Origin: a virus
Lineage: Duplodnaviria; Heunggongvirae; Uroviricota; Caudoviricetes
Strand: one strand, 5' to 3'
IMG/VR virus record: IMGVR_UViG_2671180360_000012
Length of the DNA: 7,989 nucleotides
In this document: positions 1,628 to 7,922 of the stretch, one piece after another
How the letters are laid out: each line of letters starts with the position of its first letter
Position numbering within the stretch: the first letter of the stretch is position 1
Position numbers and translations under genes: made by a program
The notes under the pieces: model-generated
Seen by the model: only the letters and a program-made list of their open reading frames with translations
Told to the model about the DNA's origin: nothing
The model's database searches: none

Positions 1628-2011
1628 ATGCGTGATATTCAGATGGTTCTTGAACGTTGGGGAGCGTGGGTGGCTAATAATCATGAAGATGTGACCTGGT
1701 CGTCCATTGCCGCCGGTTTTAAGGGATTAATTCCTTCAAAAGTAAAATCTCGCCCGCAATGTTGTGACGATGACGCGATGATTATTTGCGGGTGCATGGC
1801 CCGTCTGAAAAAGAACAACAGCGATTTGCACGATTTATTAGTAGATTATTATGTAGTCGGTATGACATTCATGTCACTGGCAGGTAAGCATTGCTGCTCT
1901 GATGGTTATATCGGGAAAAGGTTACAGAAGGCTGAGGGCATAATTGAAGGGATGTTAATGGCATTAGATATCCGGTTAGAGATGGATATCGTTGTTAATA
2001 ACTCTAATTAA
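1628..2011 (+). CDS. quuD: Late-gene antitermination protein Q (phage 21 / DLP12 QuuD type, 127 aa)
   Basis: ATG at 1628 is preceded by GGAG at 1617-1620 (7-nt spacing); the TTG at 1613 in the ORF track is less likely. The 127-aa product ([39 protein letters not shown]...[12 protein letters not shown]...) matches my recollection of the small cysteine-rich 21-type Q. Its position immediately upstream of the lysis region is canonical. Confidence 0.85.
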
Positions 2012-2032
2012 TATGCCAATTGTTTACTGAAA

Positions 2033-2062
2033 GTTATTAAAAATGGGGCGTTGCAACGCCCC
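2033..2062 (-). terminator. Candidate rho-independent terminator of the porin gene (palindrome GGGGCGTTGCAACGCCCC followed by a T-run on the - strand)
   Basis: There is a 7-bp GC-rich stem (2045-2051 with 2056-2062) and a 4-nt loop. On the - strand it is followed by ATTTTTAATAA; on the + strand it is flanked by A-runs instead, so it is unidirectional for leftward transcripts. It lies about 140 nt downstream of the porin stop. Confidence 0.55.
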
Positions 2063-2150
2063 CAAAAATAAAGGGTAATATATAACAGAAGGTTTATATA
2101 GTTAGAAGCAAGGTTGTGCTCCTAAAGGAAGTGGCTTGAGGGAGTCACTT
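2063..2150 (+). promoter_or_regulatory. Expected location of the late promoter P_R' and Q-utilisation (qut) site
   Basis: This is positional inference: in lambdoid phages P_R' and qut lie immediately downstream of Q, and this is the only non-coding DNA between Q and the + strand terminator hairpin. Several TATA-rich hexamers are present (TAATAT/TATATA around 2076-2100) but I could not pair one with a convincing -35. Confidence 0.3.
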
Positions 2151-2190
2151 ATATGTTGGGGAGGCAACGCCTCCCGCAACATATCTTTTT
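2151..2190 (+). terminator. Candidate tR'-like intrinsic terminator on the + strand (15-bp bulged hairpin followed by CTTTTT)
   Basis: The 5' arm is 2151-2165 (atatgttggggaggc), the loop is AAC at 2166-2168, and the 3' arm is 2169-2184 with one bulged G at 2176. It is followed by c + TTTTT at 2185-2190. On the - strand the hairpin is preceded by an A-run and not followed by U's, so it is + strand specific. It lies 11-50 nt beyond the porin stop codon. Confidence 0.4.
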
Positions 2191-2200
2191 CGTAATCAGA

Positions 2201-3298
2201 TTAGAACTGGTAAACCAGACCTACAGCAACGATGTCATCAGTGCTTACACCGAGTGCTTTAGTGAAGTCATTTTTGTCAAGCAGGTTGATTTTGTAATCA
2301 ACGAAAGTAGACATATTTTTGTTGAAGTAATAGGTTGCACCTACATCAACATATTTGACTAAGTCCTGATCGCCCCATACTCCAAGATCCTTACCTTTAG
2401 ATTGCAGGTAAGCAACGGACGGACGCAGACCGAAATCGAACTGATATTGTGCAACAGCTTCGAAGTTTTGAGCTTTATTAGCAACGAAGTGATCAGCAAA
2501 TACAGTCATATTCTGGGTTTCAGAATAGGTAGTGGCCAGGTAAATGTTGTTAGCGTCATATTTCAGACCTGCGGCCCAAACTTCTGCATTTTTACCGGAA
2601 GCAAATACTTCAGGAAGAACTTTCCCTGCATTAACTTGAGTGTCGGTACGATCAGATTTCGCATAAGTTGCACCGATACCGAATCCTTCGTATTCATAGG
2701 TAGCAGAGAAACCGAAGCCATCACCGTTACCTTCGGTGTAGTTATCGAAATCGCTACGATCGTTTTTGCCTTGGTACTGAGCAGCAAAGTTCAGACCATC
2801 AACCAGACCAAAGAAGTCGTTGTTACGATAGGTTGCAACACCAGTGGTGCGACCAGTCATGAACACATCTGTTTGGGTCCAGGTATCGCCACCGAATTCT
2901 GGCAGAACGTCAGTCCACGCACCGATGTCGTATGCTACACCGTAGTTACGGCCGTAATCGATTGAGCCGTAGTCACCGAATTTCAGGCCTGCAAATGCAA
3001 GACGGGTTTTGTCTTTGGAGGAACCTTGAGATTCAGCGCGGTTGCCTTTGAATTCATATTCCCACTGACCGAAACCAGTCAGCTGATCGTTGATTTGGGT
3101 TTCGCCTTTGAAGCCCAGACGAACATAAGTAGTATCACCATCATCTGCATCGTTAGAGGAAAAGTAGTGCTTGGCATTAACTTTCCCGTACAGATCCAGC
3201 TTGTTACTGTCTTTATTATAAATTTCAGCTGCCTGAGCAGACATCGCCATCAGTACTGATGCAGCTACAGCAGAAATTGCCACTGTTAATTTTTTCAT
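2201..3298 (-). CDS. nmpC: Outer-membrane general porin of the OmpC/OmpF family, phage-encoded Lc/NmpC type (365 aa), intact
   Basis: The product begins with a classic porin signal peptide ([23 protein letters not shown]|AEIYNKD...), has the conserved porin N-terminal motifs ([31 protein letters not shown]) and a C-terminal Phe (GLVYQF). The sequence matches my recollection of NmpC/Lc. The ORF is full-length with no internal interruption. Confidence 0.9.
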
Positions 3299-3886
3299 CG
3301 TGAGCCCTTTTTTTTGAACTATTATTAAAAAATGATGTCACTGCGCGATAAATATTCATCTAATCAATGTGATTATTTCAAGATGTAAGTTTTAGTTTCT
3401 CATTTAATTTGTGAAGTAGATCTCTATTTTTATCTGAACTTTTTCTATCGAAACCTATTTATGGCTCTTATTTGAACAAAAATAAATCTATTAGCTAATT
3501 TATATTAATGGCTGTTATTTATGGTGGTTCTATAATTCGTCTGTTTAATTTAAACCGGCTAAAAATAACACTGGAAATTATTTATTGGTTATTTGTTGAG
3601 GTTTTCTTATGTATTTGTTGTGATGTTTTGAACACTCGGTAGCATTCTCATAAATATCATTCAGTGGTTTACGTACGTAAAAAATTGGTTATGCTGTTAA
3701 GAGTGGTTACTTCGTCACACAGCTTAAACCCGCCGTCGAGCTGGTTTTTCCATTTTTTGAGTCTCGATATTAGCTGATAACTCAATACCTGAGTTATTCA
3801 CTGACTCGGAGTCAGTTACGTTTCTGCTTTTTTGCGATACGTTGTATTCCCTCAATTTACACCCGCTTTGTCTGCGAGGTGGGGTT
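3299..3886. promoter_or_regulatory. AT-rich intergenic region holding the porin promoter and 5' leader (- strand) and the region upstream of the holin
   Basis: This ~590-bp stretch is conspicuously AT-rich compared with the flanking coding DNA and has no ORF of 60 aa or more. The porin ATG at 3298 is preceded on the - strand by AAAAAAAAGGGCTCACG. An imperfect ~20-bp direct repeat is at 3455-3474 and 3502-3521 (16 of 20 matches), and TTATTTAT(T)GG-like motifs recur. Confidence 0.5.
3801..3833 (+). terminator. Weak terminator-like hairpin with T-run about 55 nt upstream of the holin start
   Basis: The stem is ctgact (3801-3806) paired with agtcag (3810-3815), with a cgg loop, followed by acgTTTCTGCTTTTTT (3818-3833). 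It is not followed by a T-run on the - strand. Confidence 0.3.
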
Positions 3887-4102
3887 ATGAAATTCATGGA
3901 TAAGTTAACAACTGGAGTCGCCTATGGCACCTCAGCAGGTAGTGCCGGTTACTGGTTTTTACAGCTGCTCGATAAAGTCACTCCCTCACAGTGGGCAGCA
4001 ATAGGTGTGCTGGGTAGCCTGGTATTTGGCCTGCTGACGTACCTGACAAACCTTTATTTCAAGATTAAAGAAGATAAGCGCAAGGCTGCGAGAGGTGAAT
4101 AA
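3887..4102 (+). CDS. essD: Class II holin, phage 21 S21-type pinholin (71 aa) with a dual-start motif
   Basis: ATG at 3887 is preceded by GAGGTGGGG. The product is [71 protein letters not shown], with two transmembrane segments and a charged C-terminus. Met1 and Met4 (MKFM) mirror the S21 71/68 antiholin/holin dual start. The TAA stop overlaps the endolysin ATG (TAATG). The upstream ATG at 3842 lacks support. Confidence 0.9.
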
Positions 4103-4599
4103 TGCCTCCATCATTACGAAAAGCCGTTGCTGCTGCTATTGGTGGCGGAGCAATTGCTATAGCATCAGTGTTAATCACTGGCCCAAGTGGTAACGATGGT
4201 CTGGAAGGTGTCAGCTACATACCATACAAAGATATTGTTGGTGTATGGACTGTATGTCACGGACACACCGGAAAAGACATCATGCTCGGTAAAACGTATA
4301 CCAAAGCAGAATGCAAAGCACTCTTGAATAAAGACCTTGCCACTGTCGCCAGACAAATTAACCCGTATATCAAAGTCGATATACCGGAAACAACGCGCGG
4401 CGCTCTTTACTCATTCGTTTACAATGTGGGTGCTGGCAATTTTAGAACATCGACGCTTCTTCGCAAAATAAACCAGGGCGATATCAAAGGCGCATGTGAT
4501 CAGCTGCGTCGCTGGACATACGCTGGCGGTAAGCAATGGAAAGGCCTGATGACTCGTCGTGAGATTGAGCGTGAAGTCTGTTTGTGGGGGCAACAGTGA
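4102..4599 (+). CDS. rrrD: SAR (signal-anchor-release) endolysin, T4-lysozyme-like muramidase of the phage 21 R21 type (165 aa)
   Basis: The N-terminus has a Gly/Ala-rich weakly hydrophobic SAR domain ([20 protein letters not shown]). The lysozyme catalytic region follows ([25 protein letters not shown], an E...D...T arrangement). It is start-coupled to the holin stop. Confidence 0.9.
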
Positions 4600-6083: not shown

Positions 6084-6368
6084 TGGTAAAACCTTCCATG
6101 TGATACGAGGGCGCGTAGTTTGCATTATCGTTTTTATCGTTTCAATCTGGTCTGACCTCTTTGTGTTTTGTTGATGATTTATGTCAAATATTAGGAATGT
6201 TTTCAATTAATAGTATTGGTTGTGTAACAAAGTGCGGTCCTGCTGGCATTCTGGAGGGAAATACAACCGACAGATGTATGTAAGGCCAACGTGCTCAAAT
6301 CTTCATACAGAAAGATTTGAAGTAATATTTTAACCGCTAGATGAAGAGCAAGCGCATGGAGCGACAAA

Positions 6369-6575
6369 ATGAATAAAGAACAATCTGCTGATGATCCCTC
6401 CGTGGATCTGATTCGTGTAAAAAATATGCTTAATAGCACCATTTCTATGAGTTACCCTGATGTTGTAATTGCATGTATAGAACATAAGGTGTCTCTGGAA
6501 GCATTCAGGGCAATTGAGGCAGCGTTGGTGAAGCACGATAATAATATGAAGGATTATTCCCTGGTGGTTGACTGA
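6369..6575 (+). CDS. ybcW: Small conserved lambdoid late-region protein (lambda p79 / YbcW-like), 68 aa
   Basis: ATG at 6369 is preceded by GGAG (7-nt spacing). The product is [68 protein letters not shown]. The position after bor/ybcV and before cos matches lambda and DLP12. Confidence 0.75.
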
Positions 6576-6596
6576 TCACCATAACTGCTAATCATT

Positions 6597-6605
6597 CAAA
6601 CTACT
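6597..6605. repeat. IS1 target-site duplication, left copy (CAAACTACT)
   Basis: These 9 bp immediately flank the IS1 end at 6606 and are identical to 7374-7382. Confidence 0.9.
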
Positions 6606-6620
6606 GGTAATGACTCCAAC

Positions 6621-7124
6621 TTATTGATAGTGTTTTATGTTCAGATAATGCCCGATGACTTTGTCATGCAGCTCCACCGATTTTGAGAACGACAGCGACT
6701 TCCGTCCCAGCCGTGCCAGGTGCTGCCTCAGATTCAGGTTATGCCGCTCAATTCGCTGCGTATATCGCTTGCTGATTACGTGCAGCTTTCCCTTCAGGCG
6801 GGATTCATACAGCGGCCAGCCATCCGTCATCCATATCACCACGTCAAAGGGTGGCAGCAGGCTCATAAGACGCCCCAGCGTCGCCATAGTGCGTTCACCG
6901 AATACGTGCGCAACAACCGTCTTCCGGAGCCTGTCATACGCGTAAAACAGCCAGCGCTGGCGCGATTTAGCCCCGACATAGCCCCACTGTTCGTCCATTT
7001 CCGCGCAGACGATGACGTCACTGCCCGGCTGTATGCGCGAGGTTACCGACTGCGGCCTGAGTTTTTTAAGTGACGTAAAATCGTGTTGAGGCCAACGCCC
7101 ATAATGCGGGCAGTTGCCCGGCAT
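6621..7124 (-). CDS. insB: IS1 insB' reading frame (transposase catalytic part, expressed as the InsAB' fusion by -1 frameshifting)
   Basis: The 167-codon frame ([29 protein letters not shown]...) matches my recollection of IS1 InsB. Its stop codon lies inside the terminal inverted repeat. Confidence 0.9.
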
Positions 7125-7318
7125 CCAACGCCATTCATGGCCATATCAATGATTTTCTGGTGCGTACCGGGTTGAGAAGCGGTGTAAGTGAACTGCAGTT
7201 GCCATGTTTTACGGCAGTGAGAGCAGAGATAGCGCTGATGTCCGGCGATGCTTTTGCCGTTACGCACCACCCCGTCAGTAGCTGAACAGGAGGGACAGCT
7301 GATAGAAACAGAAGCCAC
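7043..7318 (-). CDS. insA: IS1 InsA (transposition inhibitor / DNA-binding protein, 91 aa)
   Basis: The product is [91 protein letters not shown], with a zinc-finger CxxC...CxxC and a helix-turn-helix. It overlaps the insB' frame at the frameshift window. Confidence 0.95.
7061..7067 (-). other. IS1 programmed -1 ribosomal frameshift heptamer (AAAAAAC on the coding strand)
   Basis: The + strand reads gtttttt at 7061-7067, which is AAAAAAC on the - strand. It lies in the insA/insB' overlap. Confidence 0.8.
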
Positions 7319-7373
7319 TGGAGCACCTCAAAAACACCATCATACACTAAATCAGTAAGTTGGCAGCATCACC

Positions 7374-7382
7374 CAAACTACT
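7374..7382. repeat. IS1 target-site duplication, right copy (CAAACTACT)
   Basis: Identical to 6597-6605 and directly abutting the IS1 end at 7373. Confidence 0.9.
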
Positions 7383-7516
7383 TAACCTGTGACAGAGCCA
7401 ACACGCAGTCTGTCACTGTCAGGAAAGTGGTAAAACTGCAACTCAATTACTGCAATGCCCTCGTAATTAAGTGAATTTACAATATCGTCCTGTTCGGAGG
7501 GAAGAACGCGGGATGT

Positions 7517-7711
7517 TCATTCTTCATCACTTTTAATTGATGTATATGCTCTCTTTTCTGACGTTAGCCTCCGACGGCAGGCTTCAATGACCCAGGCTGA
7601 GAAATTCCCGGACCCTTTTTGATCAAGAGCGATGTTAATTTGTTCAATCATTTGGTTAGGAAAGCGGATGTTGCGGGTTGTTGTTCTGCGGGTTCTGTTC
7701 TTCGTTGACAT
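7517..7711 (-). CDS. Small hypothetical protein (YlcI/DUF3950-like, 64 aa), possibly ribbon-helix-helix-like
   Basis: A 64-codon ORF on the - strand between IS1 and cos. The product (MSTKNRTRRTTTRNIRFPNQMIEQINIALDQKGSGNFSAWVIEACRRRLTSEKRAYTSIKSDEE) has a basic N-terminus and an RFP...IEQI...L stretch reminiscent of RHH/Arc-type folds. A small gene in this position is conserved in DLP12-like prophages as I recall. The RBS is weak. Confidence 0.45.
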   Translation of the reverse strand: MSTKNRTRRTTTRNIRFPNQMIEQINIALDQKGSGNFSAWVIEACRRRLTSEKRAYTSIKSDEE

Positions 7712-7910
7712 GAGGTTGCCCCGTATTCAGTGTCGCTGATTTGTATTGTCTGAAGTTGTTTTTACGTTAAGTTGATGCGGATCAATTAATACGATACCTG
7801 CGTCATAATTGATTATTTGACGTGGTTTGATGGCGTAGATGCACGTTGTGACATGTAGATGATAATTATTATCATTTTGCGGGTCCTTTCCGGCGATCCG
7901 ACAGGTTACG

Positions 7911-7922
7911 GGGCGGCGACCT
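7911..7922 (+). other. cos: cosN: the 12-nt cohesive-end sequence (GGGCGGCGACCT) of a lambda-type cos site
   Basis: The string ccgacaggttacg|gggcggcgacct|cgcgggttttcgctatttatgaaaattttccggtttaaggcgtttccgttcttcttcg matches the lambda right-end/left-end junction as I recall it, including the 12-nt 5' overhang sequence. Confidence 0.85.

Follow-up and report, generated by a model that had tools for sequence, protein, structure and literature searches.

IS1 elements of the IS1A/IS1R type, known from E. coli and Shigella, are 768 bp long, end in 23-bp repeats, carry insA and insB' together with an A6C frameshift site, and leave a 9-bp duplication in AT-rich targets. The target-site duplication of IS1 is 9 bp, occasionally 8–11 bp, and the preference of the element for AT-rich targets is a regional one. 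Insertion sequences are also found in comparable positions of related phages and prophages. The lambdoid Shigella phage SfIV (KC814930), which has the same KilA-N/DUF968/Q module as the locus described here, carries a full-length IS1 in its Q-dependent late path. This IS1 is complete (768 bp, 99.3% identical) and lies between Q and the holin gene (35186–35953 of KC814930 by BLAST; positions 3806–4573 of the fetched locus), but it differs from ours in being upstream of the lysis genes and in the opposite orientation with respect to late transcription. SfIV was induced, formed plaques and lysogenised, and its original description annotated only an "IS1 transposase B" (orf47), the orfs 47–49 being taken as one moron (PMC3851460). 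Similarly, phage 434, which is a viable laboratory phage, and the DLP12 prophage present an insertion sequence between S and a Q of the same family, although in this case the element is an IS5 (1.2 kb), which belongs to another family and interrupts the nmpC porin gene. Finally, an IS1 is present in the Qin-like prophage of the E. coli strains TST3 and TBE6, in the homologous spacer between the ybcW-like gene and the ylcI side, offset by 12 nt and with a perfect 9-bp duplication of its own (positions 6318–7085 of the fetched TST3 locus). In contrast to the copy studied here, this element is an IS1B variant in a clearly defective prophage, and its duplication, CAAGTGACA, cuts the left arm of the inverted repeat discussed below.

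The DNA analysed here, which we call the window, is a stretch of 7,989 bp that is identical to the entire draft contig CYDK01000068.1 (GCA_001285005.1) and covers only part of a prophage. It represents the end of a lambda/DLP12-like prophage where late regulation and lysis are encoded, with the order KilA-N fragment, DUF968, Q, porin (opposite strand), S, R, Rz, bor (minus strand), ybcV (minus strand), ybcW, IS1, ylcI and cos (Table 1). The window begins inside the KilA-N gene and ends 79 bp beyond the nick of cosN, presumably at repeats that other lambdoid prophages of that genome also contain.

Our results make it very probable that this IS1 results from a simple transposition into the ybcW–ylcI spacer, private and most likely neutral, with Q-modified polymerase reading through the element. 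The event is an ordinary, textbook simple insertion of IS1, already known in kind, and it has little import beyond annotation, where it represents a clean and datable IS1 insertion with an exactly rebuilt empty site. It nevertheless raises, at the level of the strain, the question of whether Q-modified polymerase crosses an antisense IS1; the general form of this read-through question is already answered by the literature together with the SfIV and 434 precedents.

Table 1. Coordinates in the window of the IS1 insertion, its components and the neighbouring prophage features.
Feature	Position	Strand	Details
Q, late antiterminator (DLP12/phage 82/434 type)	1628..2011	+	PF06530, 1.2e-53
Porin gene, intact, 365 aa	2201-3298	opposite strand to Q	lies between Q and S
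ybcW (lambdap79 homologue)	6369..6575	+	stop codon 21 nt ahead of the left repeat
Target-site duplication, left copy, 9 bp	6597..6605	.	CAAACTACT; single copy at the empty site of relatives
Complete IS1 (IS1A-family variant)	6606..7373	-	768 bp, insA leftward; 767/768 identity and Pfam domains
IRR, insB-proximal terminal inverted repeat	6606..6628	.	inverted-repeat detection
insB' reading frame, DDE domain	6621..7124	-	PF03400, 9.5e-78
InsAB' fusion via -1 frameshift, 232 aa	6621-7318	-	reconstructed; a 232-aa product is annotated there in the source record
Private substitution, T to C on the insA strand, IS1 nt 520	6854	-	TCA to CCA, InsAB' S156P
insA, 91 aa, GTG start	7043..7318	-	PF03811, 6.8e-21; PF12759, 4.8e-31
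A6C slippery site, AAAAAAC	7061..7067	-	IS1 nt 307-313
insA promoter-like site	7366-7339	-	within the insA-proximal repeat
IRL, insA-proximal terminal inverted repeat	7351..7373	.	contains the insA promoter-like site
Target-site duplication, right copy, 9 bp	7374..7382	.	CAAACTACT; identical to the left copy
Conserved inverted repeat, GTGACAGA-N12-TCTGTCAC	7389..7416	.	just right of the insertion, intact
ylcI (DUF3950)	7517..7711	-	convergent with ybcW; IS1 on its 3' side
cosQ (GGGTCCT)	7881-7887	+	untouched; cosQ is annotated in the 434 record
cosN cohesive-end region	to 7922	+	nick 7910/7911, 12-nt end 7911-7922; untouched

The IS1 copy and its variant

An earlier reading of the window, based on the sequence alone, had described this IS1 as complete, with both inverted repeats, insA, the insB' frame and the A6C site, and the ends of the element, its Pfam domains and the frameshift reconstruction all agree with this description. 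The left end reads GGTAATGACTCCAACTTATTGAT and the right end ATCAGTAAGTTGGCAGCATCACC. The terminal inverted repeats, with the canonical ends GGTAATGACTCC and GGTGATGCTGCC, are 23 bp long and imperfect, 18 of the 23 positions being complementary. The insA product displays the Pfam domains Zn_ribbon_InsA and HTH_Tnp_IS1, both above the gathering cut-off, while the insB frame matches DDE_Tnp_IS1 with 259 bits, and the conserved D, W and E positions of the IS1 DDE domain are present in the family alignment. In our reconstruction, a -1 shift at AAAAAAC leads to the canonical InsAB', whose 232 aa correspond to the length given in a recent IS1 paper (PMC12428005). All the traits that define the IS1 family were found in this copy, namely a length of about 768 bp, imperfect repeats of about 23 bp, a 91-aa insA, an insB' with a DDE domain, the A6C site and the 9-bp duplication, and its reading frames and ends are intact.

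At the nucleotide level, the element is nearly identical to an IS1A-family variant found in many E. coli genomes, and nt 520 is the sole difference from the M217-type IS1A copy. This private base, which changes residue 156 of InsAB', also distinguishes the element from the IS1A/IS1R type. In contrast, InsA T24I, by which the window IS1 differs from the K-12 copy, is common to a widespread sub-variant. The substituted Ser156 is located ten residues ahead of the Asp in the MTDGW motif and is retained in IS1A, in IS1B, in a K-12 copy and in an isoform of about 91% identity. The parent form of InsAB' with Ser156 was found in 26 contigs, and its exact database entry is named IS1A family transposase. 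The exact 167-aa InsB with S156P occurs in only one other contig on record, a short Logan contig (SRR14209598) with an unrelated context and a different IS1 background, so that S156P has arisen at least twice. The fused InsAB' sequence with S156P was not retrieved from the cluster index, and the product of the source record may be written differently.

The possibility that S156P inactivates the transposase was considered and rejected, as it found no support. In an alignment of 20 IS1 family representatives (37–82% identity), column 156 is variable, being occupied by S, A, K, R, G or E, and lies outside the near-invariant positions. Therefore, the description of the element as intact stands, with no sign that the private change disables it. 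As judged from the sequence, this substitution would reflect either some time elapsed since the insertion or a sequencing error.

The insertion site and its empty counterpart

The element is bracketed by identical copies of CAAACTACT, as the sequence-only reading had stated, and a 9-bp match at fixed positions would arise by chance with a probability of 4^-9 = 3.8e-6. The same reading had proposed a comparison with IS1-free relatives, expected to contain a single CAAACTACT, and such relatives were indeed found. The corresponding site of phage PhiR29_1 reads ...ATCATTCAAACTACTTAACCTGTGACAGAGCC..., with one CAAACTACT only, and both PhiR29_1 and PhiR29_2 match the window throughout, IS1 excepted. 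The exact 32-mer of the empty site is present in 12 of the 17 fetched loci, including PhiR29_1 and the K-12 DLP12. When IS1 and one repeat are deleted from the window, the reconstructed empty site (624 bp) is 100% identical, in a single piece, to sequences of many complete E. coli genomes, and 1,052 complete E. coli genomes hold at least 80% of it. Likewise, the ybcW–ylcI spacing is 942 bp in the window, that is 165 + 768 + 9, compared with 165 bp in the relatives in which both genes are called. The empty site can thus be rebuilt exactly, in agreement with the simple insertion proposed before.

The occupied junction was detected neither in 5,426 complete E. coli genomes (megablast) nor in 185,579 species-representative genomes, IMG/VR and JGI metagenomes (exact 30-mer). 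The junction being known only from the draft contig CYDK01000068.1, the insertion is probably private to the source strain and evolutionarily recent, as far as sequence comparisons indicate, and the earlier proposal of a recent event gains from its absence in every other collection scanned. We propose that an ordinary IS1A-family variant transposed once into the AT-rich DNA that separates ybcW from the convergent ylcI. InsAB' would have made a staggered 9-bp cut, the repair of which would have generated the CAAACTACT duplication. The element lies in antisense orientation on the route of the late transcript that depends on Q. The target region has a GC content of 35–42%, which fits the regional preference of IS1.

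Multicopy IS1 usually breaks short-read assemblies, and it is slightly unusual that the window, all of it one contig of a draft assembly, runs straight through such an element. The junctions could have been joined across a larger IS1-bounded composite, since a composite flanked by two direct IS1 copies would show identical outer junctions and an identical 9-bp duplication, or the interior of IS1, S156P included, could be a consensus of several copies. We regard such an artefact as very unlikely. The two junctions and the exact duplication of 9 bp are those left by a real transposition, whereas a misjoin creates no target duplication; moreover, the flanks rejoin to 100% identity with natural empty sites, and the interior departs from a real variant at one of its 768 positions.

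From ybcW to ylcI, the window is 99% identical to lambda 47,738–48,119, ybcW corresponding to lambda 47738–47944, and the insertion site corresponds to lambda nt 47,966–47,974, starting 22 nt past the lambdap79 stop. The region from Q to cos is 96% identical to phage 434 and syntenic with PhiR29_1. Once IS1 is removed, the differences between the window and the latter, a deposited viable phage, amount to 25 substitutions and an in-frame duplication of 39 bp; all window genes are equal in length to those of PhiR29_1, and no other damage is visible in the window. The duplication is a perfect tandem one (725–802; 13 aa twice) in the DUF968/YdfU-like gene, of which PhiR29_1 has one copy of the 39-bp unit, and no more than three recorded contigs encode the exact form of the protein with the 13-aa duplication.

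The insertion does not interrupt any gene, any subsite of cos or any recognisable RNA element. IS1 had been located in non-coding DNA, about 540 bp upstream of cosN, with cos and the flanking ORFs intact; the gene lengths shared with the viable PhiR29_1 agree with this, and the nick of cosN, the position (7910) at which the matches of linear phage records stop, lies 528 bp beyond the right repeat, or 537 bp when counted from the end of IS1. The claim that IS1 separates ylcI from its upstream sequence had to be abandoned, because ylcI is on the minus strand. The convergent orientation of ybcW and ylcI places IS1 on the 3' side of both genes. The inverted repeat located between these two genes is also found in lambda and in the TST3 prophage, and its hairpin is modestly stable (z = -2.1). 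The disruption of a structured RNA or of a terminator by IS1 was considered and rejected, since Rfam retrieved no family match anywhere in the window and this nearby hairpin, which lies on the right of IS1, is retained.

Late transcription across the element

The late genes follow the order Q - porin - S R Rz - ybcW - IS1 - cos - Nu1 A, and IS1 is consequently located between pR'/Q and the distal genes (Nu1–A) of one transcription unit, as in polar insertions. That late transcripts must cross IS1, as pointed out in the sequence-only reading, is supported by this gene order and by a roadblock studied in lambda. When lambda was screened by CRISPRi, blocking lambdap79 with dCas12a reduced the plating efficiency (EOP) to 3e-4, even though the gene is classically dispensable, and the authors ascribed such discrepancies to polarity of the roadblock on the downstream genes of the transcript, while the opposite-strand bor and lambdap78 were scored nonessential (PMC10695390). 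An essential lambdap79 together with nonessential bor and lambdap78 is consistent with the late transcript being blocked at that position in a polar manner.

The insertion could accordingly be viewed as a strong polar block, in which Rho-dependent termination within the antisense IS1 would end the late transcript before cos, and the terminase, head and tail genes would be starved, leaving a prophage defective for virions. In ordinary operons, polarity is a classical and well-established effect of IS1 insertions. The plus strand of IS1 amounts to 768 nt of untranslated RNA and displays one weak terminator-like hairpin (7233–7247), and the lambdap79 roadblock indicates that late transcription has to pass the ybcW region. 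Nevertheless, Q-lambda is cited as a proven polarity suppressor, and both Q21 and Q-lambda make the RNA exit channel narrower, with a probable block of Rho (PMC12360218). In addition, the late transcript of this phage type already survives the gap of about 1.9 kb between Q and S (2011–3887), where it runs untranslated and antisense through the porin DNA, and phages with this same layout have been isolated and deposited. Insertions located between Q and the lysis genes are also known from viable phages, with IS1 in SfIV and IS5 in 434. In phage 434, a Q of the same family drives the late genes across the 1.2-kb IS5 of the porin gene. The terminator-like matches in the region are near the number expected by chance (10 found against 5.8 +/- 2.6). 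Both the block itself and the ensuing loss of virions thus appear improbable. Independently, a GC-rich palindromic hairpin resembling a terminator is located at 2045–2062, between Q and S.

We favour instead read-through of the inserted element. Q-modified RNA polymerase, resisting intrinsic and Rho-dependent termination, would cross IS1 with at most a modest loss, and, given such read-through, IS1 alone would leave the expression of the packaging and head genes un-abolished. The earlier view that IS1 polarity decides whether virions are produced therefore seems overstated in our analysis, considering the polarity suppression by Q, the antisense porin DNA, and the SfIV and 434 phages. Regarding genome size, lambda packages roughly 78–105% of its own genome length; the PhiR29_1 genome has 46,273 bp, and the addition of 777 bp would bring it to about 47.05 kb, below the 48.5 kb of lambda and within its packaging limits, so that genome size is no obstacle. 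Overall, our analysis suggests that the phage can probably still make particles despite IS1, and the insertion, located in a dispensable spacer between convergent genes, is probably neutral. This must be interpreted cautiously: the Q82-type proteins require NusA (PMC12360218); as the IS1 of SfIV is in the opposite orientation and 434 carries an IS5, neither is a direct precedent for an IS1 in the orientation of the window, and, since a full block at this position is lethal for plaques according to the lambda CRISPRi results, even partial termination could reduce the burst size.

IS1 insertions around the ybcW–ylcI spacer and cos

The IS1B of TST3 and TBE6, inserted 12 nt away in a Qin-like prophage and flanked by its own duplication, raises the alternative that the ybcW–ylcI spacer, beside the conserved inverted repeat, is a preferred IS1 target because of bent or AT-rich DNA or of protein binding, instead of having been hit at random. 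In agreement with this idea, the spacer region is AT-rich, and Ec-RL2-1X, ZH193 and K-12 derivatives carry further independent IS1 copies at a distance of up to about 1 kb from cos. However, two events at the spacer, compared with the 1,052 complete genomes that hold most of the empty site and with about 59,000 chromosomal IS1 places in the same collection of complete E. coli genomes, are weak evidence for a hotspot, and the shared orientation of the cases is a by-product of joining BLAST pieces. A gapped pattern that allowed either end of IS1 at up to 30 nt from the 3' end of ybcW retrieved no match in the JGI metagenomes or in the species-representative genomes. Targeted insertion thus seems unlikely. 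It is very unlikely that the GTGACAGA-N12-TCTGTCAC spacer serves as a recurrent landing pad of IS1 in lambdoid prophages, where antisense insertions, instead of being neutral, partly attenuate the Q-dependent transcription of the packaging genes as an early and reversible step of domestication.

Some matches were considered as possible occupied sites and rejected. In the full-coverage matches of K-12, the IS1 is actually in nohD and the ybcW–ylcI site is empty, and in another match, from Ec-RL2-1X, the IS1 is on the other side of ylcI. The nohD insertion of the K-12 derivatives spans positions 2640–3460 of the fetched locus, and that of Ec-RL2-1X, between ylcI and the gene for the terminase small subunit, spans positions 2821–3518. 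In ZH193, IS1 is located in a DUF1398 gene (fetched-locus positions 1495–2270) with the duplication CATTCTCTG.

Copies of insertion sequences near cos represent portable homology, which can later drive deletions leading to defective prophage remnants. Several of the related loci that we fetched are prophage remnants of such a deletion-derived kind. Finally, in PhiR11_1_star (PV340548.1), a propagated lambdoid variant, an IS1 (1–768) splits the integrase gene and an IS2 is present in the b region (about 47014–48242), showing that insertion sequences do hop into this group of lambdoid phages.
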